A DNA stretch of 34,686 bases from an uncultured virus (IMG/VR IMGVR_UViG_3300030102_002633) (taxonomy: Duplodnaviria > Heunggongvirae > Uroviricota > Caudoviricetes), in IMG/VR virus record IMGVR_UViG_3300030102_002633, one strand, 5' to 3'. A program made the translations under genes and the position numbers. Shown one piece after another: positions 2,817 through 24,919 of this stretch (positions are counted from its first letter, which is position 1; every line of letters begins with the position of its first letter). The notes under the pieces are model-generated. The model made no database searches. It was not told where the DNA came from and was given only the letters and a program-made list of their open reading frames with translations.

Positions 2817-4211
2817 ATGTCAGGATACATTAAGACAATGAAAGACTTAGAAGCAGCAACATACGGATACGGTGGAAACACTGGTAATGCTCTACTCAAA
2901 GCGGGTGGAGTTGTTGGAGGATTTGGAACTCCTCACGATGCAGCCAGTAACCCATTTACTGCTGCTGCTGGTCTTGGCGACCTTTACAACGTTCTATATG
3001 GACAGAAAGTTTGGTCAATGCTAAATCAGGAAGTTAACCCTCTTGCTATGTTGGCTAAGAGGCCATACACATCTTCCGGTTGGAGAGTTCTAAAGAGCCG
3101 ACCTATTGGTGGTAGTGGTTCAGAGTTCGCTACTGGTGCTAACGCTGTAACTGCAAACATTAACTCAACTGACGCAGCAACCCCAAGAGCAGATACCATT
3201 GGTGGTGTTCCTGAGAACGCAGTTCTTGGTACTGACTTTGTTGCACTTGCACCTGAGTACACCAAGTTGTATGTTAGCCCTAAGACCATTGCACATCTGT
3301 TTGAGTTCTCAGAACTTGGTATGGAACTTGCTGCAATTGATGACGGTGTTGGTGATATTCGTGCTATCGTAAGAGAAGACATGGGTAAACTACACGCAGA
3401 AGTTCAGAGCAAGATGCTAGTTATGCCTCTTGAGAAATACTCAGAGAACAACACAACTGGTATTGAGAAGAACTACACTTCTCTACTAAAGATTGTTTCA
3501 TCTGCCGCAGAAATCGCTCAAATGGCTGACGATGACGTATTCTACCACAACCAAACAAACAACGGTACGGCAGCACAACTTGCTGACGCAACCAGTATCT
3601 TTGGAACTGAGAGAACTGTAACTGTCAATACATCCGGTGGAAGTGGAGCATATACTTACAGTGGTGTTGCATCTTTCCTTGATGCAGAGGTTGACTATGG
3701 AGCAAACTACACATCAGGCGGTTGCCGTGTACTAACTCTAAGTATACTAAACGACATGATTCGCAGAATCAGGCAGAATGGTGGAAACCCGAAAGTTATC
3801 ATTACCGGATACGATACTATCCAAAAGATTGCTGACTTGCTACAAAGCCAAGAGCGATTCATGGACAGGAAAGAGGTTGTTCCAACCCACAACGGAGTTC
3901 GTGGTGTAAAAGGACAGGAAGTTGGATTCAGAGTTGCAACATACTATGACATCCCAATTATCCCTGCAAAGGATATGCCTTCTACTGGTAAGTCAACAAG
4001 CAACAGGCTCAGTGATATACTGATTCTTGATACTGACCACCTATGGCTATCTGTTATGAAACCAACCCAATACTTTGAGGATGGTATCACTAGCGGAAAC
4101 CCATTCGGTGTTGGCAAACTAGGGAATCAGGGTATGTACCGCACTATGGGCGAGACTTGCTGCTCCTTCTTCAAGGGACAAGGTAAGATTACCAACCTAA
4201 AGAGTGCTTGA
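2817..4211 (+). CDS. Major capsid protein (HK97 fold; halovirus/magrovirus-like)
   Basis: Follows protease/scaffold; 464 aa; YGQKVWSMLNQE...LAKRPYTSSGWRV, SPKTIAHLFEFSE, GGNPKVIITGYDT, VATYYDIPIIP, ILILDTDHL, C-terminal QGKITNL typical of HK97-fold capsids; strong RBS. Confidence 0.9.
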   Translation: MSGYIKTMKDLEAATYGYGGNTGNALLKAGGVVGGFGTPHDAASNPFTAAAGLGDLYNVLYGQKVWSMLNQEVNPLAMLAKRPYTSSGWRVLKSRPIGGSGSEFATGANAVTANINSTDAATPRADTIGGVPENAVLGTDFVALAPEYTKLYVSPKTIAHLFEFSELGMELAAIDDGVGDIRAIVREDMGKLHAEVQSKMLVMPLEKYSENNTTGIEKNYTSLLKIVSSAAEIAQMADDDVFYHNQTNNGTAAQLADATSIFGTERTVTVNTSGGSGAYTYSGVASFLDAEVDYGANYTSGGCRVLTLSILNDMIRRIRQNGGNPKVIITGYDTIQKIADLLQSQERFMDRKEVVPTHNGVRGVKGQEVGFRVATYYDIPIIPAKDMPSTGKSTSNRLSDILILDTDHLWLSVMKPTQYFEDGITSGNPFGVGKLGNQGMYRTMGETCCSFFKGQGKITNLKSA

Positions 4212-4746: not shown

Positions 4747-5027
4747 TGGTAGGTGGAGTAGCGGGTAGTCCAGTCAGAACCGCTAGTGCAGTATTGAATG
4801 TAGGTAACTGTAAGTTGAACAGTGTTCATTTTACTTCTACTGGAAATGCAACTCTAAAAATATACGACCACGATAGCACAAGTGTTGGTTCTGCTGATGA
4901 GGTCGCACGTCTAATTCTAACCGCTAATACAACAACTGAGTTCGATTTGCATGGGAGAGCAATGGGAACAGGTATTACGGCTATATTGAGTGGTTCAGGG
5001 GGAGCATACTCTTGCACATGGAGTTGA
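4743..5027 (+). CDS. Small beta-rich protein, probably virion/head-associated
   Basis: ATGA overlap with the upstream stop; 94 aa, G/S/T-rich beta-strand pattern (ATLKIYD...TTEFDL...GITAILSG); near the capsid gene. Confidence 0.7.
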   Translation: MMVGGVAGSPVRTASAVLNVGNCKLNSVHFTSTGNATLKIYDHDSTSVGSADEVARLILTANTTTEFDLHGRAMGTGITAILSGSGGAYSCTWS

Positions 5028-5031
5028 TTGC

Positions 5032-5445
5032 TTGCCAGTTATAGACACAGATACACGATTAATAATGACCATGCTCTTTGTTGGAGCAGTAAGTGGATTG
5101 AACATTTACGTATACGCCTTAGTGGGAACTTCCTTCCCATATAGCGGAGTAGCCCATGCAGTGTTATTTGGAGTTAGCACTGTTGGTGGGATAATGATAC
5201 TGAAAGTAATATTGGATTTAATTGCTAATGATTTTATAGAGGAGTTCTTGCTAAAACGAAGAATAGATTCTTATTGGAATAGAAAGGCAAATGACGAAGA
5301 AAACAGAAAGAGGGTAAGAGAATCCTTAGTTCAGTTCCAACAGGCATACTATCAGAATCAACAACAAGTGCAACAAAATGTTATGGTTCAACCAGTAAGC
5401 GACAACACTCTAAGCCCTACTTTCTTAACACAATTTCAAGAGTGA
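5032..5445 (+). CDS. Two-TM membrane protein with a charged/Gln-rich C-terminal coiled coil
   Basis: Probable TTG start at 5032 after GGAGTTGA (ORF track starts at 4990, overlapping the previous gene); hydrophobic spans LIMTMLFVGAVSGLNIYVYALVG and VAHAVLFGVSTVGGIMILKVIL. Confidence 0.75.
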   Translation: MPVIDTDTRLIMTMLFVGAVSGLNIYVYALVGTSFPYSGVAHAVLFGVSTVGGIMILKVILDLIANDFIEEFLLKRRIDSYWNRKANDEENRKRVRESLVQFQQAYYQNQQQVQQNVMVQPVSDNTLSPTFLTQFQE

Positions 5446-5454
5446 GGGTAGAAT

Positions 5455-5682
5455 ATGGTCGGAGAAATCCTAATGGGATTCGATGAATCCACATTAGCAT
5501 ATGACCTACAAAGAGCGCATTCTGCTGATATTTGGTTTCTAAGAGCAAGGTTCTACATTTGGGGTGCAGCAGTTTCAGTAGGAACTTTTCTAATAGGCCA
5601 TGCTTTGCCGTTGTTTGGTGTTAATCTATACTCTATCTTTTGGGATGGGTTTGTCTCTTTTTGGAATCATCTATGGGGGTAG
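5455..5682 (+). CDS. Small membrane protein (one TM plus aromatic amphipathic C-terminus)
   Basis: GAGGG RBS; FYIWGAAVSVGTFLIGHALPLFGV then YSIFWDGFVSFWNHLWG. Confidence 0.75.
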   Translation: MVGEILMGFDESTLAYDLQRAHSADIWFLRARFYIWGAAVSVGTFLIGHALPLFGVNLYSIFWDGFVSFWNHLWG

Positions 5683-5688
5683 AGCCTG

Positions 5689-6387
5689 ATGTCCGTGATG
5701 ACGGGCTTTGCCATACTCATAGTTGAGGCTATGAACAAGATGTATCAACGTCTTCACTCTATACCGTTTGGTGTGTATGGTGCAAGCAAAGTAGGTAAAA
5801 CAACATTACACCATCAATTGAGAACAAGAGGAGAAGTTCCTTCTATTACAGATAGAACAGTTGGTCTACATAGAGCCACAAGAAAATATGTAAAACTTGA
5901 CGGTGATGCTCATACAGTAAAAACTGCTGATGTTGGTGGAGAAACTGTTTACTGGAATGAGTGGTTAGAGGATATGCGTGGTCGTCACGTAAAATATATT
6001 ATTTTCATGATAGATGATAGACATATGGACAAACACTACGATATAGAACAACAACTATGTTGGACATTTTTAGTTGATACTATTTGTTCATCTCATTGGA
6101 ACGTAAATGGAGTTGGCACTATTGGTGGATTAATGGGGAAAAAAAAGAAAAAGAAGCCTCATGATTACCCAATAGCAGTATCTATTTGGGCTAACAAATA
6201 TGATTTGTGGAAGGATAAATATGACTACAATGGAGACATGGATAAGCACCCTATATTTGAGTCATTTAAACCCGGAATGCAGAAGTTAAACGACAAAGGA
6301 ATACCTGTCCATAAATACATTGTAAGTGCTAAATCTGATTCAGAGATGGTATATAGAGGAATCCTAACAATCATAAAGGACTACTAA
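5689..6387 (+). CDS. Ras-superfamily small GTPase (Arf/Sar- and Rab-like features)
   Basis: G1 GASKVGKT (5779), G2 Thr in DRTVG, G3 DVGGE (5929), strand IIFMID, G4 NKYD (6193), G5 SAK (6325); N-terminal hydrophobic/amphipathic extension. Confidence 0.92.
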   Translation: MSVMTGFAILIVEAMNKMYQRLHSIPFGVYGASKVGKTTLHHQLRTRGEVPSITDRTVGLHRATRKYVKLDGDAHTVKTADVGGETVYWNEWLEDMRGRHVKYIIFMIDDRHMDKHYDIEQQLCWTFLVDTICSSHWNVNGVGTIGGLMGKKKKKKPHDYPIAVSIWANKYDLWKDKYDYNGDMDKHPIFESFKPGMQKLNDKGIPVHKYIVSAKSDSEMVYRGILTIIKDY

Positions 6388-6399
6388 GGGAGAGATGAT

Positions 6400-7074
6400 A
6401 TGTCTATGCAATTTCAGCCACCTAGTTTAATTGGCGCACAGTCAGCAAATACAGGAATGAACCCATTTCTTGACAGACTTTCTGCTGCAAGAGCAGCAGG
6501 TTCAGTCATGATTTATGAATATAAAAGCGTTAAGCCAAAAAAACAATTGAAAGAAATCATCAAAGTGCTTATGCCTGAAAAGAAAAAACTGTTAGGAATA
6601 AAATATGGTTTCAAATACAACATAAAAGATAGATGTGTGGTATGTGGGACACAAAAGAATTGGGAAGCAGGGGACTCGATGAGGCCACCTCTTCCTTTAC
6701 ATAAAGTGCGTAAAGGATATCCAATGAGAGGAACATATTGTGAGAAACACGCTCAGATACACAGACAATATGAAATGTTAGAACAACAAATGCTTGCAGA
6801 AGAACATGGGCTTTCTTTTAGTGCCTACATCCCATCTGCAAGAAGTTTGAATCCTTTAGCAAGTGGCCCTATGACTGGTCTAAAACAGGAAGATATTACT
6901 TCTCTAACATCATTGGGTTGGACTATTAAACCCCCTGTTGCTTTAGTAGAAACTAAAGAAGAAGAGTTGTTCAGATTAATCATAGAAACTAATGGAATCA
7001 ATAGTAGGATGAAAACACTATTAGCCGAAGGCACTAGGGTATCATCAGCACAAGACGAGGAGGATGTAGAATAA
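6400..7074 (+). CDS. Zinc-finger protein (CxxC...CxxH), possibly a GAP for the adjacent GTPase
   Basis: CVVC at 6634 and CEKHAQIHR at 6739-6765; GGGAG RBS. The GAP role is inference only. Confidence 0.7.
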   Translation: MSMQFQPPSLIGAQSANTGMNPFLDRLSAARAAGSVMIYEYKSVKPKKQLKEIIKVLMPEKKKLLGIKYGFKYNIKDRCVVCGTQKNWEAGDSMRPPLPLHKVRKGYPMRGTYCEKHAQIHRQYEMLEQQMLAEEHGLSFSAYIPSARSLNPLASGPMTGLKQEDITSLTSLGWTIKPPVALVETKEEELFRLIIETNGINSRMKTLLAEGTRVSSAQDEEDVE

Positions 7075-7772
7075 TGGGACTATTCGGAACAAGCAACAGT
7101 TCATTGTCAACCCAAATACAGGGTCAACAACAAAGTAATTTCAAAGCAATGAACAACTTACTAACACTACAAGAGAATCATGTGGAAGATTTCTTCCAGT
7201 ATCATGGAGAAGCATTTTTAGGTGCTTTGGAGAAGTTAATTGAAGATGTAGTAACACGCTCTGTAAGTCAGATGTTAACTAAGTTAGAGTTCAATCAGAG
7301 TTCAAGCGGTAATCTAACAATCGCTCCCGAAGCACTCAATGAGTTTACATCAATAACTCAAGAAAATATTGATTTAGATTTGGCTAATCTTTTGGCTACT
7401 GCTATCAACAGTGAAGTTGTTATGCAGAGAAGAATGGCTAAACAACAATATCTTGAAGCACAAGGCTTCTCTTCTCCTTCTCAGCCACAACCCACAACAA
7501 CTCCAATGAATATAAATCCGAATGGATTAGACCCTTCACAGATACAGGGCGGTAATATGGCAGTTGGTATGAATAATACCATGATGCAACAACAAATGGC
7601 TTTCAATAACCAATCAGGATATCCTGTTCCTCCTTCGGGATATGACAGTATGAACAATCCATATTGGATTGACCCCGCAACAGGTCAACCAACATACACC
7701 CCACCGCAGAGTGGATTAGGTTTAGCATCAGGACTAGGTAAAGCAGTTGCATGGGCTAAGTGGTTAGCATAG
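7074..7772 (+). CDS. Hypothetical protein: helical core, Q/N/M/P-rich low-complexity region, amphipathic termini
   Basis: TAATG coupling to upstream gene; starts MGLFG; ends GLGLASGLGKAVAWAKWLA. Confidence 0.8.
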   Translation: MGLFGTSNSSLSTQIQGQQQSNFKAMNNLLTLQENHVEDFFQYHGEAFLGALEKLIEDVVTRSVSQMLTKLEFNQSSSGNLTIAPEALNEFTSITQENIDLDLANLLATAINSEVVMQRRMAKQQYLEAQGFSSPSQPQPTTTPMNINPNGLDPSQIQGGNMAVGMNNTMMQQQMAFNNQSGYPVPPSGYDSMNNPYWIDPATGQPTYTPPQSGLGLASGLGKAVAWAKWLA

Positions 7773-11275: not shown

Positions 11276-11792
11276 TGAAGTTACATTCGTGAAAAGACTT
11301 CTTTCTGATAATTGGAGTGCTTCTGCTTTATCACTATACAATAGTGGTAAGATAGCAACTAACCTTCCTGTTCCTAAAATCATAGATGTTCGCTCGATTG
11401 AGCCACAAGAAGGAAGGAGGGTAGATGTAGATTCAAACAATGTAATTGTCATCTTTGAAGATAGTTCCTCTACCACTTATCCTACTATTGATTATACAGT
11501 TAGAAATGAAACATTTACCTTTACAATACACATAAGAGTGTTACATAGAAGGGACTTTCCCGACAATACAACTTCAAGAGATAGACTCAGAATACTATAT
11601 CGAATCGTGCGACACATTCTTGAGACAAACTCTCTTAGCCCTACCATAACAACTACATCGGGAGGCTCAACTTTTACTGATAGTGCAGAAGTAATCAAAC
11701 TAACAAGTAGGAGTGAAGCCAATGATAGAAAGAAAAGGTTATTGGGCTACAAACTAAGCGTAGAGATGAAGAGAATGGGGAGAAGCATATGA
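11259..11792 (+). CDS. Probable tail terminator/completion protein
   Basis: GGAGG RBS; alpha/beta pattern (VIVIFE...FTIHIRVL...RLRILYRIVRHIL...YKLSVEM); directly upstream of the tail tube gene. Confidence 0.65.
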   Translation: MAELLDEVTFVKRLLSDNWSASALSLYNSGKIATNLPVPKIIDVRSIEPQEGRRVDVDSNNVIVIFEDSSSTTYPTIDYTVRNETFTFTIHIRVLHRRDFPDNTTSRDRLRILYRIVRHILETNSLSPTITTTSGGSTFTDSAEVIKLTSRSEANDRKKRLLGYKLSVEMKRMGRSI

Positions 11793-13363
11793 CGACAACC
11801 GCAATATTGACTGATGAGGTGTTTACCGGAGCAGGTGCATCTGCTACAATGATACCTGAATGCGACATATATTTGCCTAATTGTGACCTTTCCGCCACTT
11901 TTACTAGCGTTGATATTATTCAGGCTGATTCTCTTGAGAGTGTTGCAATGTCATTAGTTCCTAACCTGTATGTTGGTTGTATGGCGAAAGTCGTTAATAC
12001 AGTAGATTCAGAATTTAGTGGAACATACATGATAAAGAGCAACACTACTAATTCAATTACTTTTGCAGAGGCTCTTGGAGATACCGAAGACGATAGAATA
12101 GATATTACAATTCTATCTTTTGGCTCACCATCCCCTGCTCCTAACGTAATAACAGGAAAACCTACATTGTTGGCTGATAACTGGTTAGGTTTAGTCAATA
12201 CAATTACTCCTCCATCAGTTGAGGTTGAAGTGGGACAACTCAATCTTGCATTGGGAGGAAGCAGAAACTTCGGATACCAATTCAAGAAGGGAGAAACCGT
12301 TAGCGGTGGTTCTCTTGATATCTCGATGAATAATGGTTCATGGCTTTACTATGTCTTAGGAGATTACACCGTATCTAATGGTAGTGCCGGAGGCGGGACT
12401 GCACACTCATTGGGAGGAAGTGGAAGTCTATCAGGAAACGGAGTAGCATTAGATACTACTGCTGATAGACTGGTTAGAGTTATTGATGGTAAAGAGTATC
12501 CTCCATCTTCAAACATAGGTAATTTGCAAATGGTTACAGAGAATACTGGCGGATACTTTGTTTACAACTTTACTGAGAACAACGGAGATTCATTGCCTTC
12601 ATTCGCATTGGAACTTACTTATGAGAAAACAGGATTAGCAGATGCAAACTACTACGTTGGTTCAGAGGGAACATCAACCGATGCTACTGCAAAGCCAATC
12701 AAGGATATCTACGCAAAGGTATTCACTGGATGTCAAGTAAACAGTATGACCATGAACTTTGAAGAAGGTCAAGAGTTGAAGACAAGTTTAGACTTGGTTA
12801 CAAGAAGGGCATTTGATGCACCAATAGATTACACTCCAAGAAGAAGAGTTCGCACAAACACATCTCTATTCAACTACCATTCTGATGATACTAACAACAG
12901 ACCATACCTTTTCTCAGGTGGTCAAATACAGTTGTATGGTCAGACTATTGCAAGAGTGAAGACAGGAAGTTTGACTATTGCAAACAACATAACTCCTCAG
13001 AGATTCATAGGACAGTCTTCAAGAGAAGTCATGTCTGCTCACATTCCGGCACAAAGAACATATGATATATCTCTAACACTACTAATTACAGATTCAAAAG
13101 TTTGGGAAGAACTCAGAAAGGAAGGAGAGTCATTAGGAGAAGGTCAAAGACTCACTCTCAAGTTCGCCAAAGATTTAGACAATGCTACTGTTGATGATTT
13201 CATTGAGTTGAAGTTCAATGACTATCTAACACAGAGCGTAAGCATACCGTTCCCCGAAGACAAAGGAGCATTAGAGGTAGAAGTTACCTTAGCGGCAAGA
13301 ACTTTGGAAAGTGCAACATATCAAGGAGATTGGAAGATACTACAATCTGCATCAGGAGTATAG
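11789..13363 (+). CDS. Major tail tube protein with extra domains
   Basis: GETVSGGSLDISM, LPSFALE, FTGCQVNSMTMNFEEGQELKTSLD, GSLTIANNI, RTYDISLTL; sits between terminator and chaperone genes; no sheath gene in the block. Confidence 0.8.
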   Translation: MTTTAILTDEVFTGAGASATMIPECDIYLPNCDLSATFTSVDIIQADSLESVAMSLVPNLYVGCMAKVVNTVDSEFSGTYMIKSNTTNSITFAEALGDTEDDRIDITILSFGSPSPAPNVITGKPTLLADNWLGLVNTITPPSVEVEVGQLNLALGGSRNFGYQFKKGETVSGGSLDISMNNGSWLYYVLGDYTVSNGSAGGGTAHSLGGSGSLSGNGVALDTTADRLVRVIDGKEYPPSSNIGNLQMVTENTGGYFVYNFTENNGDSLPSFALELTYEKTGLADANYYVGSEGTSTDATAKPIKDIYAKVFTGCQVNSMTMNFEEGQELKTSLDLVTRRAFDAPIDYTPRRRVRTNTSLFNYHSDDTNNRPYLFSGGQIQLYGQTIARVKTGSLTIANNITPQRFIGQSSREVMSAHIPAQRTYDISLTLLITDSKVWEELRKEGESLGEGQRLTLKFAKDLDNATVDDFIELKFNDYLTQSVSIPFPEDKGALEVEVTLAARTLESATYQGDWKILQSASGV

Positions 13364-13448
13364 GGGGATTTCTAAAGTAAATAGAATCCCTATACAGTTC
13401 ATACATTCCACCAACATTGTTTGTTTGTTGGTTTTTCGTTAGGTGGAA
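13358..13448 (+). promoter_or_regulatory. Structured intergenic region: hairpin plus RBS-sequestering/alternative stem
   Basis: Imperfect hairpin 13358-13395; TTCCACC (13406-13412) is complementary to GGTGGAA (13442-13448, the RBS); alternative ACCAACA/TGTTGGT stem followed by a T-run. Confidence 0.5.
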
Positions 13449-13455
13449 AGATATT

Positions 13456-13821
13456 ATGAGTGAAGAAAAAATAGTAAGTGATAAGAACAGTTTGTTTGCG
13501 ACAGTAAACACCGATTGCCATACGTTGAAGGTTAGCCCTGATTCGGATGAAGTGCTGAAAGTTTGGGTAAAAGAACCCACTTGGCTACAAGTAGAACAGG
13601 CATTATCATCTGTAATGAAGGTTGATGATGATGGAAGAATGGAACTTGACTTGAACAAGATGTATAAGTTCATGTGCCAAGAGTTCGTAGAGAAAACTGA
13701 ACCCCAACTTTCTAGCATTGAACTACTCAGATTGAATCCCTACATTGGGGCGCAATTGAAAGAAGTCCTCCCAAATCCATTCTTTGATTTACAGGAGGAG
13801 GATACAAAAAAAGCAATCTGA
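13456..13821 (+). CDS. Tail assembly chaperone (lambda gpG analogue)
   Basis: Between tube and tape measure genes; AGGTGG RBS supports ATG 13456 (MSEEK) rather than the TTG at 13417; ends at a slippery A-run. Confidence 0.8.
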   Translation: MSEEKIVSDKNSLFATVNTDCHTLKVSPDSDEVLKVWVKEPTWLQVEQALSSVMKVDDDGRMELDLNKMYKFMCQEFVEKTEPQLSSIELLRLNPYIGAQLKEVLPNPFFDLQEEDTKKAI

Positions 13822-14036
13822 TTCGTAAAGCATTAAGTGGTAGAGAAGTAGATGCTTCTTTAGGTTTTAGAATCATATTGTATTCATACTGCAAGACTTT
13901 CTCAATAAGTCCCGCAGAAGCACAACATACGCCAATGAAATTAATGGTTGAAATGTTACAGATACACTCAGAAGTAGAATCAATGAAAAATAGAGAAATG
14001 GAAAAGGAGGTGAAAAAACATGACCAAAGAAAATGA
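13812..14036 (+). CDS. -1 frameshift extension of the tail chaperone (gpGT analogue)
   Basis: A AAA AAA heptamer at 13806-13812; -1 frame open to TGA 14034-14036: SNLIRKALSG...YSYCKTFSISPAEAQHTPMKLMVEMLQIH...DQRK. Confidence 0.85.
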   Translation, partial: SNLIRKALSGREVDASLGFRIILYSYCKTFSISPAEAQHTPMKLMVEMLQIHSEVESMKNREMEKEVKKHDQRK

Positions 14037-15441
14037 AAGAGAACTTTCTGAACTTAGCAAGGCATTTGATAGAGCGGCAAGTTCCATTTCAAGAACGGGT
14101 CAAGCATTTGGTGAATTAGCAGAAAGTAGTAAAGAGTGGACTGTCATTAGTCGTATTCTTTCCGGTACTGGTATGTGGAGATTACAAAATCAAATACGTG
14201 CAGTAGGTCAAACAATTAACATATTTCATAAAAGACAGGAAGAAGCAAGAAAGGCTACATTAGAAGCAACAGAGGCTAATTTACAATTGGCTAAATCTCT
14301 CAAAGAAGTGGAAAACGCACTTGGTATGTCAGAGGAAGATATGAGAAAACAACCACTGACAAGAATGTTTACTAAAGCAGGTAGAGATGGAATTAAAGAA
14401 TACAAAGCAATGTGGCAAGAAGCAGGTAAACAGTTGGCTAAAGCAGAAGGTGGTCTTATGAAGTCACTTAGGCCGAGTGCTACTTCTAAATTTTTAGAAG
14501 GCGGGTTTTTCAAAGATAAGGAAACCGGAGAGGGAGGAGTTGGTCAATTCTTATCAGAAGTTACTGGTTATGGTAAAGTTAGTAGTAGACTAACAACACT
14601 CAAGGACAGATTCAAACAAACTGCAATTGGGGCTAACCTTCAAACTGTTGCAGGTATACCGCTTCCTACTAGTTATGGAATAAAAAAACAGTTTCTAAGA
14701 ACTAAAGGTAGATTAGGAGAAATAGTGAGGGGCGGTAGAAGAGGATATCGAAAAAACTTAGAAAAACTAGCCCGTAAATTAGGAGGGGTTGCAGGTAAAA
14801 TAAGTCAATTCTTTGTTGTTGGTGCTGCATTTTTGCTCAAAGCATCTGTGTGGTTTTTGGCAATAGTTACTGGAATAGCGTTGTTGGTATTTGTTATTAA
14901 AAAGTTAAAAATAAAAAAACGGTTACAGGCTTTTGAAAAGAAGTTTGGTTTCTTTGCAGAATTGTTTGAAGAAATTAAAACAATTTTAACTGCCGTTTTT
15001 GACGTGTTCAAAGCAGCATTTGCAGGTGATGGCGGAGCATTATGGAAAGGACTCAAAAAACTGTTTTGGGCTTGGTTAAGTATGTTGGAAACTATTATCA
15101 AAATACTTTTGACAGGTCTTTGGCAAGTAGTTAAAGCAATTGGAAAGGGTATTGTTAAAGGAGTTAAAAATTTCATCTTTGGTAGGGCTAATGGTGGAGT
15201 AGTGCGTTCCGGTGAATTAACACTAGTGGGAGAACGTGGCCCTGAATTAGTTAGATTACCTTCAGGAGCAAGAGTTCACACTAATTCTGAAAGCAAAAGA
15301 ATGAGTGGAGGAACAATCAACGTTCATGTTAACGGAAGAGTTGGTGCTTCTGACACTGAAATAAGGGATATAGCCAGTAAGGTAGCAAGAGAGATTAACA
15401 CTCAGATGAACAGACAAGCACATACGGTAGGTAGATTCTGA
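14020..15441 (+). CDS. Tail tape measure protein (short)
   Basis: GGAGGTGA RBS (14006-14013); helical, with a hydrophobic span and amphipathic repeats; C-terminal RANGGVV...LVGERGPELV...TINVHVNG motif common in tape measures. Confidence 0.85.
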   Translation: MTKENERELSELSKAFDRAASSISRTGQAFGELAESSKEWTVISRILSGTGMWRLQNQIRAVGQTINIFHKRQEEARKATLEATEANLQLAKSLKEVENALGMSEEDMRKQPLTRMFTKAGRDGIKEYKAMWQEAGKQLAKAEGGLMKSLRPSATSKFLEGGFFKDKETGEGGVGQFLSEVTGYGKVSSRLTTLKDRFKQTAIGANLQTVAGIPLPTSYGIKKQFLRTKGRLGEIVRGGRRGYRKNLEKLARKLGGVAGKISQFFVVGAAFLLKASVWFLAIVTGIALLVFVIKKLKIKKRLQAFEKKFGFFAELFEEIKTILTAVFDVFKAAFAGDGGALWKGLKKLFWAWLSMLETIIKILLTGLWQVVKAIGKGIVKGVKNFIFGRANGGVVRSGELTLVGERGPELVRLPSGARVHTNSESKRMSGGTINVHVNGRVGASDTEIRDIASKVAREINTQMNRQAHTVGRF

Positions 15442-17276: not shown

Positions 17277-20200
17277 ATGGGAGCAAATGATAACACTACT
17301 GGTAGGATGTTCTATCCAATCAACTCAGGTAAGAAGAGTAGTGATATCACAAACAGTTACGCAAATAGAAATGCTGAGTTTACTGGAAATGACGCATTCA
17401 AGAACGTGAGTGTAAATCCACAGTTCAAGACGATAGGTATTCAACAGGAGAACTCAACAACAGGAAGTTCCTTTGTTAACTCTGCTAATTTTATAGAAAT
17501 AAGAAACGCACCAAGAGCAACAGGGATATCCAATGATTCAGGAGATAAAATTGTTAACAGAATCTTACCAACAAATACTAACTTGGATTCTTATGGTGTA
17601 AATAATGATGAAACGAGTCCAAGCAAAATAAAGGTATATGATGCTAATGATTCTTTCAGTGAAACCAACAGGAAGTTTGTGTATGGTACAACCCTCTATC
17701 CTGATAGCGATACAGTAGGATTAGACATTGACAACTATGATTACTTTATTCTGATAAACCCCGAAATGACTTCTGCCGGAGCAAATAGGATAAGACCACA
17801 CTTTGCTAAGATAACTAGAATACTAGCCTTTGATGAGTTTGGTGATGGTTTGGAGTTTGAACCTGCATACCATACAAGCGTTGCATCACAGAGCAAGTTT
17901 GAGATTTTCAAAGGGCCATCCAAAACAGATACATCAGTTGTAGCAGTGAGTTATGGTCTTAGAGGGGATACTGATGCTAACACATCAAAGTACGATATTC
18001 TTCAAAGAGCAGTTAGACCAACGTTCTACTTCTACAATGATAGATTAGATGAGAAAAACCAATTAGACTATGCAGAGAAATACACTGCTACTTCTGAAAG
18101 ATATTGGGGATATGGAACAGAGATATCTATTGCAGGTAGAGATGCTCACACACAATATGTGAATACTACTACGCAGAAGTTTACGCTTCTAACTAATGCA
18201 GATTTAGACAAGTTTATTCACGGCCAATCAATATTCGATGCAAATAATACCTTTATCGGGAATGTAAAAGAAAAGACATATTCAGGGCTTTTGTATTCAT
18301 TCAAAATAGACTATGCTAGAACTGCACTGTCTTCTTTTAGTTCAACTAACTCAAGAATTGCAACCATTGGAACACATAGCATTTCAGGAATACCATCATC
18401 AAGTAGTGTTGGAAGTAACACATACTCGTCAACTGGTGGTAGTGGTAGTGGTGCTACTTTCACTATTGTAGTAGTTGAAGCATCAGGAGTTAGATTTGTT
18501 CAATCTGTTTCTCTCTCTTTTGGAGGCACTGGTTATACTGCGAGCGATAATCTTAGTGTAAATGTTGGAGGGGCTACTGTAACAATACCTGTTGCCTCTG
18601 TTACAAGTGATGACATTAAAATAAAAATAGGAAAAACAATACAGAACGTAGTATTCAAAACTAAAGGTAAATATTCCAATACAATACAGAGTTTAGGTGA
18701 AAACAGAATATCTGCTACATTGGTTGACTCTAACAGAACTTCTGATGAAGCAGATAACTCATTTGATGCAACGAGATGGCAAACTGCTTTTCCTAAAATG
18801 AAAAGACATTCTCAGGATTTAATTACTGCTACTGCTAACTCATTAGATGGTAATTTGACTGGCCCTAACAGATACATCACATTTGAAAAAGCAGAATACA
18901 AGAATAGCAAGGTTGAGCCGAGTATCAGTGCTTCTCTCAATAGTCCTAAGAATAAACTTACAAAACTCGTTAGGTTTCAAATCGTTGATAATAGTGGTCT
19001 GCAACATTTGAAAATAAAGGAAAATTCAGACTTAAAAATAAGAAGAAACCTACATAGTGGTACTTTTACTAAAAAAGAATTTATTGGTTTTGCTAAATCA
19101 ATATCTTCTCCTAATAATAAAATACAATTGAGCGAACTAAAGAGTGAGATTGATTTGAAACATATTCTAAGTGTTAATGATATTATTGAATTAAATGGAT
19201 ATCATTTTGTTGTTAATTCAATAGAAGATAAATCAAGCGATACTGAACAAGCCATTGTCATCAAAGATAGAAAGTTGAAAACGGCTAAGGTTTGGGAATC
19301 AGATTCAGAAGTTCCTACATTTGATAGAGAGAAATTGTTCTTAATGCCTTTTACTGGTGTTTTGAATTTAAACTTTGAAAGTGATACAGAAGTATTGTTA
19401 GATGACACTGGTAATTTCCAAACTCTAACTATGAATGGAGTTGCAGTAAACAAAACAGATAGCAAACTACACAAGTCGTTTTTATCACCACTGTTTTACA
19501 ATAGTCATTTAATTGAAGTAGACTATGCAGATAAGAACAATAAATATGCTAAGATTATAGATAGTGATAAGACGTTTTACCAAAAGTCAAATGTTTCTGC
19601 AAGTAGATTGTATTACTACGATGGAGCATTTAGTATATCAGAACAAGTGTTTAGTGGTAGTGTTGATGACTTAGAGTTTATCACGGAACAAGGAAATACA
19701 ACTGTTAAGGTAACAGGTAGAGATGACACAAGTAAATTACTTGGTAAAACTATAACCAAATCTCTAACACATCATAGTGATATTGTAAAAACAACATTAC
19801 CGCCTACTATTACTACGTTTACAAATCTAACAGGGCTAACTGTCACTACGATTGGGTCTACAAGCATAAGTGTTTCAGGGACACCAAGTTCAGCATTTAA
19901 AAAATATATGCTCTTATTTGATGGAGATAGTAATTTTATTGGAGAAGTAAACGATTATATTCTAGTTCTTGGTTCAGTATATTCTATTACGTTTACTCAT
20001 GAACATTATTGCACTAAGACTGTTAGTGAATTAAATACTAGTGGGTTCAAATTCTATCATCCCTATTCTACTACTCAATACAATCAAATTGCAGGGACTA
20101 AATCTTTGCAAAGCAATGTCTTACACAGTGTAGGAGTAGGTGATTTCACTTCAATTAGTGAAAGAGGTCTATCTTTTAGAAAAGGGTTGAATATTGATTA

Positions 20201-23200
20201 TGATGGTTCTTTCAGTTATACTCCTTTGAGTTTGAGTTCTAATCAGAGTAATTCTTCTGCCGATACATTGGGATATGACATTTCATCACCCATTTCAATA
20301 TCAACTGATGATGCAGTATTTGCTTTTAATATTGGAAACGAAAATGGAGTGACAGTAGATAAACAGGATATAATGACAGTCAATTCTGAATTGTTTGATG
20401 TAGTTAAAGTAAGTGAGCAAGATAATGCTTCTACTGTTTTAGAGATAGCCCCTACATTTCCTATGGTGTTAGGCAGAATAGATAGTAACACTTCTGATAG
20501 TAGAGGAAACGCAAAATTGTATCTTGTAAATAATAACATAGAAACTGGTGGATTTATTCATAGATTAAAGGATAAGTTTGTTGGAGGAGATGGGATTGTT
20601 CAATTTGCTCCAACAGACACAATAAGATACTGGGATTTGCAGTTAATAAGACCAAATACTTTAGTTAGAACAGTAGATAGCATATACAGTACAGGTTCAA
20701 AACCCCAAGCAATACAAGGATATGCAGTTGGATATGGTATTGATGCGACAGGAACTACAAAATCTGTTACAGAAACACCCGACAACAAACCAATTAACGG
20801 TAGTAATACCTTAAGTGGTTGGAATCATTTGTCTAATTTCTATGGCGACTATCCACTGATAACAACATACCCCTCTCATTCTAATGGTGTAAGTGGGGAA
20901 ACTGACATTATGTATTCTGAGTTTGAGCAAATTGACCCAAGAAGTTTAACTTATGAATTACTTGCAACCGGAGATATATTCCCTTCATCGAAACAAAGAC
21001 ACAATAGTTTGTTCAATACAAACCACGCAAGGGGATTCAATAATTACGGAATTATGTTAGAAACACTATCAGGTCAAACAAGTAGCACATCTCACCAAAA
21101 ATATACGGGAACTACATCTCAGACTTTGAAGAGGGATATACACTTTGAGTCTGCATCCATAGTAGATAGTAGTCCAGTGAACACTGACCAAATCAGAAGG
21201 TGGGGTGTGATACGTTTAGTTGAAGCAACCTTTGACTGGCATTTCAATCCATTGGATTTTGACTCATTAGCAGATAGTTTTGATTCATTGAAGTATTTTG
21301 ACTATGTTATGATAAGGAAACCAGTTCAACTCAATGGATATACTTTGGAAGTTTCTGATGGTGATGCTGATGGAACTCTATTAGCACAAATGACTGCGGG
21401 TGATTTAGCCTACAAGAAAGATGCAATAGGAACTAACAGTAGTGAAAGTAAAGCAGGTTTGAGAATATTAGGTGATACTCATAGTGGTTTTGCTGCATAT
21501 CGTGCTAGTAATACAACCGGAGTAAATAGTAATTTTACAGATAATTATGGGACTATAATAGGAGAAAACCCTGCTAATAACATACTGAGATTTGATGGAA
21601 TAACAGTTAATGGAACTACTTTCAAAGGAGTTGAGAGTTTTAGGTTGTTCACCGATGACCAAATCTCTCTCAATGCTTTGGAAACTGCTACTGATGTAGG
21701 AATTTTTATTGATAGAGTAAACGGGCATAAGGACATAAACTTCCATAGAAGTTGGATTACACATCCACCTGTTGATTATACAGACGGTACTAATGGGTTT
21801 ATGCACCAGTTGTTGAAGAACTCTGACGGTGATAAATACGACCCAATGAATGTTATTCTCCCCATAATCGCAGAGAACAAGTCAGGTAATAGCGATAAGA
21901 ACGACAAACTATTCTCGCCTTTCCATAGACAAGACCATTGGGATAATGCTGCTACAACTGGTTTAACTTCTTCAAATGGTATAGATATGTTACATATGTC
22001 GAGAGTCATAAGTGGGTTAGTCAAGCCTTCATACGGGCAAGGGCCAAGTTTAGACAAGGGAGATATAGAATTATTAGGATTAGGACAAGGAGATGTGTAT
22101 GCTAACTGTATTGGTCTATTTAGAAACCTTGAGGCAATAGGTGAGTCAACAAACCTATACCTAAAGTGGGACGACTCGATTCCCTTGATAAGTAGTCCAT
22201 TGGGTAGGACTGACACAACAAATTATTCTACTAGGGAAGGATATAATATGGGTTCAAGTAAATTTAACAGTTATTCTCACAGTGTACTACTCGGTACAAA
22301 TACATACGGAGCGAACACGGATAGTGACCAACATTCAGAATCAACAAGATTGTATGAATGGACTAACCCCGATGTTACTTCTTACAACACAGGAAGCCCT
22401 GTTTTAACATCTCAAAATTACAAAGCATCTATGTTGGGTATACATACTACTGCGTATCCATTTGATAAAAAAGGAACAATGTCGGCAGCACGTAGAGGCT
22501 CTGATTATCGAGGTTTTGACCACACCACTCATACTAACATATTAGGTAATTCCGTTGATAACTGGGGTCAGATGTGGGCTTCTCAATTCATTGTCAAACC
22601 CACATTCAACTTAACTGCTTCTTCCAGTTTAGTGTATTCAAACTCAAATAAAACAATAACTTTCAATCTCGATGATTCTTCCACTCATAACTGGTTAAGT
22701 TTCATGCCTAATTTAAAGGGGTATTATTTGGTTTCTGAGTCATTGGTAGATGGTGACACTCTAAGAAACGCAAAGCATCATGGTGTTCCGAAGTTTATCG
22801 CTAAGATAGTCAACCACACTATCTCTACTGCCCCTAACCATGTTCCGGGCAATACTACTGCAAGTACCTTTGAGGCTCAACAGATTGAGTTTGACACTGC
22901 AATTGATGTTTCCTCCAATGGAGCAAATTACAGATTAATGAGGATATCAGAAACCACCTTTGACGATACTCCTGAAAAGATAGAGTTCAATGTAATGAAA
23001 GACACTGGATTAGATTACAATTTAACTTCTGTTAACTTTAGAACTGGTAAGGGGAGCAATGATGATAAAACAAATGATAAGAGATTCCATGAAACAGTTT
23101 ATTCAATGTATTTGAGATTGGATATTGATAATCCTATATTGGGTTCAGAGAGCAATCCATTCATAGAAGCAAGAAACACAACGAGGGCAAAAGTTGGTTT

Positions 23201-24569
23201 CACAGAAGGAGAGACAATTACTGCTTTTGTCTCTGACGGTAACACAAAAAGAAAGGTAGAATTGACTGTAAGTTTAACAAGACAAAAGCAGACAACATCT
23301 TCTACTGAGCCTTGTTTAGTGTTTACCTATGGGGGTAGATTAAATGGTAATGGAGTTGTTTCTTTTGGTGAGGTCATAGACGTTACATTAGGAAGAAAAC
23401 CAAGACTAAAAAGATTAACCCGATGTTATATTGGAACTTCATTTGATATTGGTTCTAATATAGACACAGAATTGAATAATGTAATAGCAGACGCAGGTTT
23501 AGAATATGATTTTACTAATAGTAATGCAATATTTACAACAAACATAGTAAACACAAATACCTCAACCACAATTGTTTGTTTAGAGAATGTTGTTGAATTA
23601 AGTGCAGGTGATGTAATATACACCCAAGAAGGACATCTAATAGGAGAGATACTTTCTATTAACAACAAAACAATAACCTTTGCAAGTGGGAAAAAGTATT
23701 ACACTCCTCCTCAATACTCAAACATCATCAAATTAAATGAAAGAACCTTTGTTAGCAATATAAAACTAACAAGTTCTGATGTTTATAGCACGATTAATTC
23801 ACTAACAAGTATGAAAGGTATGGACTATAAGATACAAAACAACAAAGTTATTTTCAGAAACTTTGAAGATACTTCAAGTCTTTTAAGAAAAGAAGTAACT
23901 TTTTCAGATTTAACAGGTGCAAGCCCAATTAGCAATAACGTTTCTTTATTAGATAAAGTAAACAGAGTGGAAGTTAAGGGAGATGGGGTCGAACACGCTG
24001 TTGAACTATTTACTACTTCAGATACCAAGACAATGAAAATAAATGACTCATCCATAACTACAATACAAGAAGCAGAAATACGAGGAATGAAATTACTACA
24101 AATACATAATTCAGATGCGAGAAAAATAACGTTAGAAATAAACTCAAAGGGATTTGAGTTATTAGAAGCAGGGGATTTACTACATTTGAACTTCCCTACA
24201 TATAACGTGCCAAAGGGAGATTACATAATATTTGAAATTGAAAACGTCTTAGGGCCAACTATGAAAATGACAGTTGGAACTTACAATAAAGGAATTGCAG
24301 AGAGATTAAGTGAAATATCACAAGAAGGCAGTCAAAACATTAGTCACATTCTAAGTGCAAATGCAGAAGGAAGTTCAGGTCAGAAAACCATATTTGAACC
24401 AATGAATCTTAAAGTAACTGAATTAGAATACACAGTGCGTGGTGGATTAACCGATTCAAACATAGGCTTTGACGATATAGCAGGTTTCACTGAAACAGTA
24501 GGGTTTGATATCGTTGCAACGGGTGAAATAGGAATAAAGAAGGAATACAAGGATAGATTCTATGATTAG
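17277..24569 (+). CDS. Very large tail-tip/baseplate hub protein (Tal/gp27-like core with long insertions)
   Basis: 2430 aa; hub-like segments VFSGSVDD...VKVTGRDDTSKLL and INSLTSMKGMDYKIQNNKVIFR...NRVEVKG...LEAGDLLHL...YIIFEIEN. Confidence 0.75.
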   Translation: MGANDNTTGRMFYPINSGKKSSDITNSYANRNAEFTGNDAFKNVSVNPQFKTIGIQQENSTTGSSFVNSANFIEIRNAPRATGISNDSGDKIVNRILPTNTNLDSYGVNNDETSPSKIKVYDANDSFSETNRKFVYGTTLYPDSDTVGLDIDNYDYFILINPEMTSAGANRIRPHFAKITRILAFDEFGDGLEFEPAYHTSVASQSKFEIFKGPSKTDTSVVAVSYGLRGDTDANTSKYDILQRAVRPTFYFYNDRLDEKNQLDYAEKYTATSERYWGYGTEISIAGRDAHTQYVNTTTQKFTLLTNADLDKFIHGQSIFDANNTFIGNVKEKTYSGLLYSFKIDYARTALSSFSSTNSRIATIGTHSISGIPSSSSVGSNTYSSTGGSGSGATFTIVVVEASGVRFVQSVSLSFGGTGYTASDNLSVNVGGATVTIPVASVTSDDIKIKIGKTIQNVVFKTKGKYSNTIQSLGENRISATLVDSNRTSDEADNSFDATRWQTAFPKMKRHSQDLITATANSLDGNLTGPNRYITFEKAEYKNSKVEPSISASLNSPKNKLTKLVRFQIVDNSGLQHLKIKENSDLKIRRNLHSGTFTKKEFIGFAKSISSPNNKIQLSELKSEIDLKHILSVNDIIELNGYHFVVNSIEDKSSDTEQAIVIKDRKLKTAKVWESDSEVPTFDREKLFLMPFTGVLNLNFESDTEVLLDDTGNFQTLTMNGVAVNKTDSKLHKSFLSPLFYNSHLIEVDYADKNNKYAKIIDSDKTFYQKSNVSASRLYYYDGAFSISEQVFSGSVDDLEFITEQGNTTVKVTGRDDTSKLLGKTITKSLTHHSDIVKTTLPPTITTFTNLTGLTVTTIGSTSISVSGTPSSAFKKYMLLFDGDSNFIGEVNDYILVLGSVYSITFTHEHYCTKTVSELNTSGFKFYHPYSTTQYNQIAGTKSLQSNVLHSVGVGDFTSISERGLSFRKGLNIDYDGSFSYTPLSLSSNQSNSSADTLGYDISSPISISTDDAVFAFNIGNENGVTVDKQDIMTVNSELFDVVKVSEQDNASTVLEIAPTFPMVLGRIDSNTSDSRGNAKLYLVNNNIETGGFIHRLKDKFVGGDGIVQFAPTDTIRYWDLQLIRPNTLVRTVDSIYSTGSKPQAIQGYAVGYGIDATGTTKSVTETPDNKPINGSNTLSGWNHLSNFYGDYPLITTYPSHSNGVSGETDIMYSEFEQIDPRSLTYELLATGDIFPSSKQRHNSLFNTNHARGFNNYGIMLETLSGQTSSTSHQKYTGTTSQTLKRDIHFESASIVDSSPVNTDQIRRWGVIRLVEATFDWHFNPLDFDSLADSFDSLKYFDYVMIRKPVQLNGYTLEVSDGDADGTLLAQMTAGDLAYKKDAIGTNSSESKAGLRILGDTHSGFAAYRASNTTGVNSNFTDNYGTIIGENPANNILRFDGITVNGTTFKGVESFRLFTDDQISLNALETATDVGIFIDRVNGHKDINFHRSWITHPPVDYTDGTNGFMHQLLKNSDGDKYDPMNVILPIIAENKSGNSDKNDKLFSPFHRQDHWDNAATTGLTSSNGIDMLHMSRVISGLVKPSYGQGPSLDKGDIELLGLGQGDVYANCIGLFRNLEAIGESTNLYLKWDDSIPLISSPLGRTDTTNYSTREGYNMGSSKFNSYSHSVLLGTNTYGANTDSDQHSESTRLYEWTNPDVTSYNTGSPVLTSQNYKASMLGIHTTAYPFDKKGTMSAARRGSDYRGFDHTTHTNILGNSVDNWGQMWASQFIVKPTFNLTASSSLVYSNSNKTITFNLDDSSTHNWLSFMPNLKGYYLVSESLVDGDTLRNAKHHGVPKFIAKIVNHTISTAPNHVPGNTTASTFEAQQIEFDTAIDVSSNGANYRLMRISETTFDDTPEKIEFNVMKDTGLDYNLTSVNFRTGKGSNDDKTNDKRFHETVYSMYLRLDIDNPILGSESNPFIEARNTTRAKVGFTEGETITAFVSDGNTKRKVELTVSLTRQKQTTSSTEPCLVFTYGGRLNGNGVVSFGEVIDVTLGRKPRLKRLTRCYIGTSFDIGSNIDTELNNVIADAGLEYDFTNSNAIFTTNIVNTNTSTTIVCLENVVELSAGDVIYTQEGHLIGEILSINNKTITFASGKKYYTPPQYSNIIKLNERTFVSNIKLTSSDVYSTINSLTSMKGMDYKIQNNKVIFRNFEDTSSLLRKEVTFSDLTGASPISNNVSLLDKVNRVEVKGDGVEHAVELFTTSDTKTMKINDSSITTIQEAEIRGMKLLQIHNSDARKITLEINSKGFELLEAGDLLHLNFPTYNVPKGDYIIFEIENVLGPTMKMTVGTYNKGIAERLSEISQEGSQNISHILSANAEGSSGQKTIFEPMNLKVTELEYTVRGGLTDSNIGFDDIAGFTETVGFDIVATGEIGIKKEYKDRFYD

Positions 24570-24580
24570 GAGGAAAGAAA

Positions 24581-24919
24581 ATGATAGCAGATGAAGGAGT
24601 ATCGGATATAATAGCGAATTACATTCAAGGTAATTACACGAAAATAAAGGTTGGAAGTGGAGGTGATGCTCCATCAGAGGCAGATACAGAATTAGATTCC
24701 TTCGTTGCAGAAAAGACGGTTACGCCTTCTTTAATAGGAACTGTAATGACTTGGACAGTTGAGTTTACTGGTGCAGAAATTGGTCTTGAAGGTATATCAG
24801 AACTAGGAATTTTCAAGTCATCAGGAGATAAAATGTTAAGTCGGGTCACATTCAGCAATACAGGAGTGTTGGCATCAGCAGACACATTGACTATAACAAT
24901 TAGAGTGGAGGTAGGTTAA
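24581..24919 (+). CDS. Small tail-fibre attachment/baseplate protein
   Basis: AGGAGG RBS; IKVGSG...DTELD...EFTGAE...ISELGIF...MLSRVTF resembles tail-fibre N-terminal/collar domains. Confidence 0.7.
   Translation: MIADEGVSDIIANYIQGNYTKIKVGSGGDAPSEADTELDSFVAEKTVTPSLIGTVMTWTVEFTGAEIGLEGISELGIFKSSGDKMLSRVTFSNTGVLASADTLTITIRVEVG

Follow-up and report, generated by a model that had tools for sequence, protein, structure and literature searches.

The question raised by this locus is whether a small zinc-finger protein encoded directly downstream of a viral GTPase gene acts on its neighbor as an ArfGAP would, or serves the virus in some other way. The window, i.e. the whole stretch of DNA that was analyzed (34,686 nucleotides), encodes this protein (hereafter ZnF) with residues 79-122, CVVCGTQKNWEAGDSMRPPLPLHKVRKGYPMRGTYCEKHAQIHR (nucleotides 6634-6765), reading CVVCGTQKNW...YCEKHAQIHR and containing the motif C79-x2-C82-x31-C114-x2-H117-x4-R122. 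An earlier note had pointed to C-x2-C-x31-C-x2-H-x4-R at 6634..6765 as the mark of a divergent or convergent GAP, and translation reproduces both the spacing and the coordinates exactly. The gene and the parts of its motif are the following:

6400..7074, + strand: ZnF ORF, 224 amino acids with an ATG start, of a lineage-specific family without a Pfam, PHROG, NCBIfam or PDB relative
6634..6645, + strand: putative zinc knuckle 1, C79-V-V-C82, followed by conserved G83 and W88 (alignment)
6682..6699, + strand: loop R95-P-P-L-P-L between the ligand pairs, conserved in the alignment
6739..6750, + strand: putative ligand pair 2, C114-E-K-H117, at the start of a predicted long helix 115-135 (alignment; low-confidence AF2 helix)
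6763..6765, + strand: codon of R122, the proposed arginine finger, not conserved in the alignment

Conservation was evaluated in an alignment of 207 sequences, taken from the window, from P0001-P0157 and, as ZnF genes, from 49 viral loci; fragments were kept, and counts were made per aligned residue, so that denominators vary. The four ligands are invariant or nearly so (C79 in 174/174, C82 in 175/177, C114 in 179/179 and H117 in 178/178), which makes a zinc site in ZnF very likely. The predicted proteome of the window is extremely poor in cysteine (28 Cys among 11,347 amino acids of 21 ORFs), and all three Cys of ZnF are residues of the motif; the pattern C..C.{10,40}C..[CH] occurs once in the ORFs of the window, in ZnF, and in 0 of 2000 within-protein shuffles. 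C79, C82, C114 and H117 most likely hold one structural zinc ion, in a site that would consist of a Cys knuckle, a long conserved Pro-rich loop (R95 conserved in 177/178 and P96 in 178/178), and a Cys-His pair opening a long helix. In one locus among L001-L138, the best tblastn alignment reads L*KTRSMHRQ for C-x-K-H, with a stop codon and replaced residues at ligand pair 2; this could be a broken ZnF copy or an assembly frame error.

ArfGAP domains have a C4 finger of the form CxxC-x16-CxxC, and the Arg five residues after the fourth ligand is catalytic. ZnF resembles the ArfGAP family (PF01412) in having a Cys-rich zinc site, a Gly after the first CxxC and a nearby Trp, and in having an Arf-like GTPase as its presumed partner; the CG and Trp that had been singled out as ArfGAP-like are indeed conserved among homologs (G83 in 177/178, W88 in 180/182). 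The Arg five residues after the fourth ligand is a further likeness in the window sequence. The IHR to which it belongs, which had been counted as a further match with its Arg as the catalytic finger, is not maintained in the family: position 120 is variable (I/L/M/F/V/H/Y), position 121 is H in 173 and Y in 5, and position 122 is R in 147, K in 18 and M in 15 of 180 aligned homologs. A similar distribution at position 122 is found in 130 two-gene loci, some of whose contigs were fetched twice (R in 95, M in 21, K in 11, and 3 unresolved). Since about one-tenth of homologs have Met in place of R122, this residue cannot be a catalytic arginine finger; an Arg that varies among homologs is one of the outcomes that the earlier note had named as refuting its proposal.

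The layout of the site likewise differs from that of ArfGAP domains, in that the spacer is 31 residues rather than 16 and the fourth ligand is an invariant His (178/178), not Cys. The ArfGap profile PF01412 matched 0 of 27 diverse ZnF members at E<=10, a search in which the HMMER filters drop most matches above an E-value of about 0.1; the zinc-finger profiles of Pfam also matched 0 of the 27 at E<=10, and ArfGAP chains are absent among the 50 VIA-align matches listed for each of the two weak ZnF models. Judged by its sequence, ZnF is not an ArfGAP domain: its spacing differs, a fourth Cys is missing and the Arg varies. The resemblance of R122 in the window sequence to an ArfGAP arginine finger is due to chance. 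It is scarcely credible that the CxxCG...W knuckle and the x4-R spacing of the window, despite these differences, mark a divergent ArfGAP domain with R122 of IHR as its catalytic finger. What survives of the earlier proposal of a GAP is the metal site and the link to the GTPase; the ArfGAP domain with an R122 finger does not, given the 0/27 result for PF01412 and the variability of R122.

Treble-clef zinc sites, a very common class, combine a CxxC knuckle, set in a beta-hairpin-like turn, with two further ligands supplied by the N-terminal end of a helix. The AF2 models of ZnF are weak (pLDDT 61 for the full length and 59 for residues 36-150, built with 46 sequences), and their secondary structure puts the knuckle between two bridge residues, followed by a long loop and then by helix 115-135, which opens with the Cys-His pair. 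On these low-confidence models, the site may be described as treble-clef-like, with the difference that a very long, conserved loop of 31 residues separates the ligand pairs, and that no structural neighbor was found: Foldseek gave 0 matches against the PDB at E<=0.001 with the weak models, and VIA-align, over 48,161 chains, gave best Z values of 4.3 (full length) and 4.2 (core), all to helical hairpins. The sole return of a BFVD fold search was an unnamed member of the ZnF family, 47% identical, and the best scores in the ESM Atlas (0.82-0.83) are at chance level.

Database searches with ZnF found no family in Pfam, PHROGs or NCBIfam and no tblastn match in 50,697 phage records; in the PDB, phmmer gave one chance-level row (Snf5, E 0.41) and the family profile gave none at E<=10. 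A word-index search retrieved 393 homologous clusters; these come from marine metagenomes and from viral contigs as long as ~100 kb, and every one is either nameless or labeled 'hypothetical'. An exhaustive search of 1.84 billion representatives (50% identity, E<=0.001) retrieved only 37, mostly fragments. From this small number of representatives, the ZnF family is evidently confined to one lineage. A search of genome_contigs for a cellular source of the GTPase and ZnF gave three loci, of which one was rejected as a 20-residue chance match; the other two (L137 and L138, GTPase identity 72% and 60%) are on contigs in one MAG titled Maricaulis sp., and are probably viral contigs misbinned with the bacterium, which would mislead host prediction. 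A run labeled as a marine metatranscriptome contains three short contigs, 95-99% alike, that cover 4990-5268, 5675-5826 and 6908-7166; none spans the zinc motif and the run is a low-share holder in which DNA carry-over is possible, so that the RNA evidence for this part of the genome is weak.

The neighbor that had been taken for a GTPase has the motifs of one. Its gene and motifs are the following:

5689..6387, + strand: small Ras-superfamily (Arf-like) GTPase, 232 amino acids, with G1-G5 motifs
5779-5802, + strand: G1 motif GASKVGKT of the GTPase (G31-T38)
5929-5943, + strand: G3 motif DVGGE of the GTPase (DxxG = D81-G84)
6193-6204, + strand: G4 motif NKYD of the GTPase (N169-D172)
6325-6333, + strand: G5 motif SAK of the GTPase (S213-K215)

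The motif set of the Ras superfamily (G1, T57 of switch I, G3, G4 and G5) is invariant in 26 sequences of the family, which is encoded by 571 viral stretches and gave no tblastn match in the phage records. Pfam profiles hit the 26 members weakly (MMR_HSR1 in 25, SRPRB in 18, Roc in 17, Ras in 10 and Arf in 9), and for the GTPase of the window all five score below the curated cut-offs; some JGI records automatically name the neighbor 'GTPase SAR1 family protein', and the language-model (Atlas) neighbors outside the viral clusters are prokaryotic and Arf-annotated, with scores of 0.92-0.95. The protein begins with a hydrophobic stretch, MSVMTGFAILIVEAMNKMYQRL, whose helical moment is moderate. 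When the family profile was run against the PDB, 8oun_A came out best (E 0.017), level with Ras chains; it is described in bioRxiv 10.1101/2024.02.28.582541 as an Asgard Arf-related GTPase with an N-terminal amphipathic helix. The alignment to 8oun_A begins at chain residue 6. In Ras and Arf, the switch-II residue after DxxG is the catalytic Gln; among 130 loci, the corresponding residue 85 of the viral GTPase (5941-5943) is Glu in 75 and Gln in the remaining 55. An apparent co-variation of this residue with position 122 of ZnF (Met accompanied by Gln in 20 of 21 loci) was rejected as a clade effect, the loci being related and some of them fetched twice.

The GTPase of the window contains an insertion of 9 residues (GVGTIGGLM) followed by a poly-Lys loop (GKKKKKKP), at 6103-6138 (residues about 139-150), which is common to L002 and L005 (232 amino acids) and absent in L001, L003, L004 and most relatives (223 amino acids); one contig of run X5 is without 27 letters at this site. 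Prediction of a complex of the GTPase (with GTP and Mg) and ZnF gave ipSAE values of 0.00 and 0.00 which, in the absence of controls, speak neither for nor against binding.

The adjacency of the two genes, which the earlier note considered notable, is strongly conserved in related viral loci. The GTPase is directly upstream of ZnF in 48 of 49 ZnF-seeded loci, the sole miss having 120 nt of upstream sequence, and ZnF is downstream of the GTPase in 80 of 80 GTPase-seeded loci, where it starts 11-19 nt beyond the end of the GTPase match in 58 and 58-100 nt beyond it in the other 22. The genes and the spacer that surround the pair are the following:

4990..5445, + strand: small protein with two predicted membrane segments (residues 24-46 and 52-83; Kyte-Doolittle scan), conserved in related loci
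5455..5682, + strand: 75-amino-acid protein with one predicted membrane segment (residues 38-56), directly upstream of the GTPase and conserved in related loci
6388..6399, + strand: GTPase-ZnF spacer of 12 nt, GGGAGAGATGAT, purine-rich and Shine-Dalgarno-like
7074..7772, + strand: Q/N-rich ORF of 232 amino acids, its ATG sharing one base with the ZnF stop (TAATG)

The Q/N-rich ORF comes next after ZnF in 44 of the 49 loci; in the other five, the sequence stops at ZnF or within it. Given gaps of 12 nt and -1 nt, the GTPase, ZnF and Q/N-rich genes are probably co-translated. In the most divergent ZnF-seeded loci, the gap between GTPase and ZnF is 255 nt (L048, 1445-1699) and 384 nt (L049, 2617-3000); L049 also has ~1.65 kb (292-1947) inserted between the gene of the 75-amino-acid membrane protein and the GTPase gene.

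The window is from a group-B-type magrovirus, a tailed virus, as can be deduced from the genes on both sides of the pair and from a 92-kb relative (G002, 96% complete, with a ZnF 97% identical). The recognizable genes of the window are the following:

1-1548: ligase-domain ORF just before the prohead protease (PF01068, E 1.4e-6)
2817-4211: major capsid gene, SU10_MCP (Pfam)
11789-13363: tail tube, Phage_tube_2 (E 8.6e-17), related to gene 128 of HVTV-1
13417-13821: chaperone-like ORF of the tail module
14020-15441: tape-measure-like ORF of the tail module

Among the 50,697 phage records, the capsid protein matches archaeal tailed viruses only, namely the HVTV-1/HCTV haloviruses, which match best, and viruses assigned to methanogen-related hosts. 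In G002, the family-B polymerase is split; the genome further encodes an AAA protein resembling a clamp loader, an ATP-dependent (replicative) ligase of three domains and a ribonucleotide reductase of class II, and a second ligase domain immediately precedes the prohead protease. In the sections of Philosof et al. 2017 (PMC5434244) that bear on classification, magrovirus group B is distinguished by halovirus-like structural genes, a split polymerase unique to that group and RNR, groups A and B have one ligase embedded in the structural module, and marine group II archaea are assigned as the host. The window and G002 together have the halovirus-like capsid, the split PolB, two ligases and RNR.

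Several other features of these genomes were observed. The ORF at 1-1548 holds the C-terminal part of an ATP-dependent DNA ligase adenylation domain, the full gene in G002 encoding 863 amino acids, and the tail module is recognizable at 11789-15441 of the window. After the tail genes are two giant ORFs, at 17277-24569 (2430 amino acids) and 24919-34686 (at least 3256 amino acids, running off the window), neither of which is matched by Pfam or PHROGs; the second seems, in G002, to cross the record ends. G002 also encodes, on the minus strand (L133, 9665-10576), a 303-amino-acid protein with an N-terminal TFIIB-type zinc ribbon (E 1.2e-7), a transcription factor type of archaea and eukaryotes that is here viral.

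The location of the pair is the chief argument for the main rival explanation, that ZnF serves in the head-tail region as a virion or assembly protein (a connector, head completion protein or assembly factor) with a structural zinc, and that the GTPase is beside it incidentally. ZnF has the major capsid gene (2817-4211) on one side and the tail tube gene (11789-13363) on the other, a position usual for connector genes in tailed viruses, and HVTV-1 has seven small unnamed genes at the corresponding place; a position between capsid and tail genes suits such a protein as well as it suits a partner of the GTPase. Moreover, the genes of the structural module are all on one strand and tightly packed, so that adjacency alone is weak evidence of joint function, and conservation of gene order in the module is described in that part of PMC5434244 as a general trait of magroviruses. 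Against a virion or assembly role, ZnF is dissimilar to the HVTV-1 genes of the region and to the structural families of PHROGs, and a GTPase and two membrane proteins would be unusual as parts of a connector. Only the protease, capsid and tail-tube genes are shared between HVTV-1 and the window, and none of the seven small HVTV-1 genes is a counterpart of the GTPase or ZnF; thus, the block with the GTPase and ZnF is an addition particular to the marine lineage. We consider a virion or assembly role somewhat unlikely, although it is the most serious competitor of a partnership with the GTPase.

Nucleic-acid binding is common among small viral zinc proteins, and ZnF could in principle be a zinc-finger protein of this kind (a late regulator or DNA-packaging accessory) unrelated to the GTPase. 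The protein is basic overall (31 K+R versus 25 D+E), and its Lys-rich helix (residues 45-62) adjoins the zinc site. No DNA- or RNA-binding family was matched by ZnF, however, and its strict co-inheritance with the GTPase is not what such an unrelated function would lead one to expect; this explanation is very unlikely.

A partnership of ZnF with the GTPase has a cellular precedent in Haloferax. In the pertinent sections of Mills et al. 2024 (PMC10927574), the small GTPase ArvA/OapA is reported to drive vesicle formation; its N-terminus forms an amphipathic helix, its annotation is PF01926, and the HMM profile closest to it is that of Arf. The Zn-ribbon protein ArvC, encoded in the ArvA operon, is proposed there as a GAP, its knockout leading to 1.65-fold more vesicles, and ArvB and ArvC are stated in the same sections to have no homology to eukaryotic GAP or GEF domains (PMC10927574). 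The viral pair shares this design as far as it is described: an Arf-like GTPase with a hydrophobic or amphipathic N-terminal helix stands beside a small zinc protein suspected of being a GAP, both systems belong to the archaeal world, and the viral GTPase has the same weak Pfam picture, with MMR_HSR1 first (25/26) and Arf-like features (Arf in 9/26). In contrast, the zinc site of ArvC is N-terminal and that of ZnF central, and the viral pair is inside a capsid-tail module, flanked by two small membrane proteins. ArvC is DUF2072, now the OapC family of Pfam (PF09845). This profile matched 0 of 27 ZnF members and nothing in six frames of the 92-kb G002 at E<=10, and PF09846 (OapB/ArvB) also had no match in G002 at E<=10. 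With neither profile matched in the ZnF family or G002, the parallel to ArvA/ArvC is one of analogy without demonstrable descent: the viral pair resembles the archaeal one in design, not by demonstrable homology.

The precedent also bears on a special case of the partnership, in which ZnF would be a true GAP of the viral GTPase, of a new kind other than ArfGAP, with an Arg other than R122 (e.g. R95 or R78). R95 is the best-conserved Arg of the zinc region and is invariant also in family alignment A2, as are R78 and R31; the conserved synteny with the GTPase and the published proposal of the Zn-ribbon protein ArvC as the GAP of ArvA (PMC10927574, in the sections cited above) are consistent with such an activity. 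Against it, the profile and fold searches (the latter with weak models) gave no similarity to any GAP family. The division of the switch-II residue between Glu (75) and Gln (55) in 130 loci indicates no obvious dependence of the GTPase on one catalytic set-up. GAP activity of a new kind is unlikely.

The explanation that we prefer, with about even confidence, is that ZnF is a lineage-specific, zinc-stabilized partner of the viral GTPase in a late gene block that also encodes predicted membrane proteins. An invariant same-strand block, consisting of two small membrane proteins, the Arf-like GTPase with its hydrophobic N-terminal helix, ZnF and the Q/N-rich protein, is inserted between the capsid and tail genes of group-B-type magroviruses; ZnF would bind the GTPase, and the pair would work in a late, membrane-associated step of infection, paralleling the control of vesicle budding by ArvA and ArvC. 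Within this partnership, ZnF is most likely a regulator or effector of the GTPase, both the interaction and the membrane role being deduced from gene content. The partnership is favored by the invariance of the zinc ligands in a Cys-poor proteome, by the tight linkage of the pair (GTPase upstream in 48/49 and 80/80 loci, Q/N-rich ORF following in 44/49), by the invariance of G1-G5 and T57 in the GTPase and the start of its alignment at residue 6 of 8oun_A, by the predicted membrane segments of the two upstream ORFs, by the lineage-particular insertion of the block relative to HVTV-1, and by the ArvA/ArvC precedent (PMC10927574, same sections). It is weakened by the low confidence of the structure models, by the packed and generally conserved order of the module, and by the dissimilarity of ZnF to OapC/ArvC and the absence of OapB/ArvB, which leave that precedent as an analogy only.

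In the surface ocean, magroviruses rank among the most abundant viruses, and we know of no lysis machinery in tailed archaeal viruses and of no route by which they exit the host. A bolder and rather improbable extension of the partnership is that the magrovirus block constitutes the virus's own membrane-acting GTPase switch, in which the two membrane proteins, the Arf-like GTPase with an N-terminal helix that would insert into membranes, ZnF as a new kind of GAP or effector, and the Q/N-rich protein would be expressed late and would reshape or break the membrane of the archaeal host, allowing virions to be released or to spread in a vesicle-like manner. If true, a tailed archaeal virus would possess an egress device driven by a GTPase, the viral counterpart of the ArvA vesiculation system. 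Arf-like small GTPases were only recently shown to drive membrane budding in Euryarchaeota, according to the sections of PMC10927574 cited above. The word 'GTPase' is absent from the main texts of PMC5434244, PMC10160649, PMC11706807 and PMC8651126 and from the supplements of PMC5434244 and PMC10160649, and a literature search that paired GTPase with magroviruses or Poseidoniales viruses brought up nothing of relevance. The GTPase-ZnF pair, which is conserved in hundreds of magrovirus contigs, offers a small, testable system for the regulation of a GTPase and its action on membranes.
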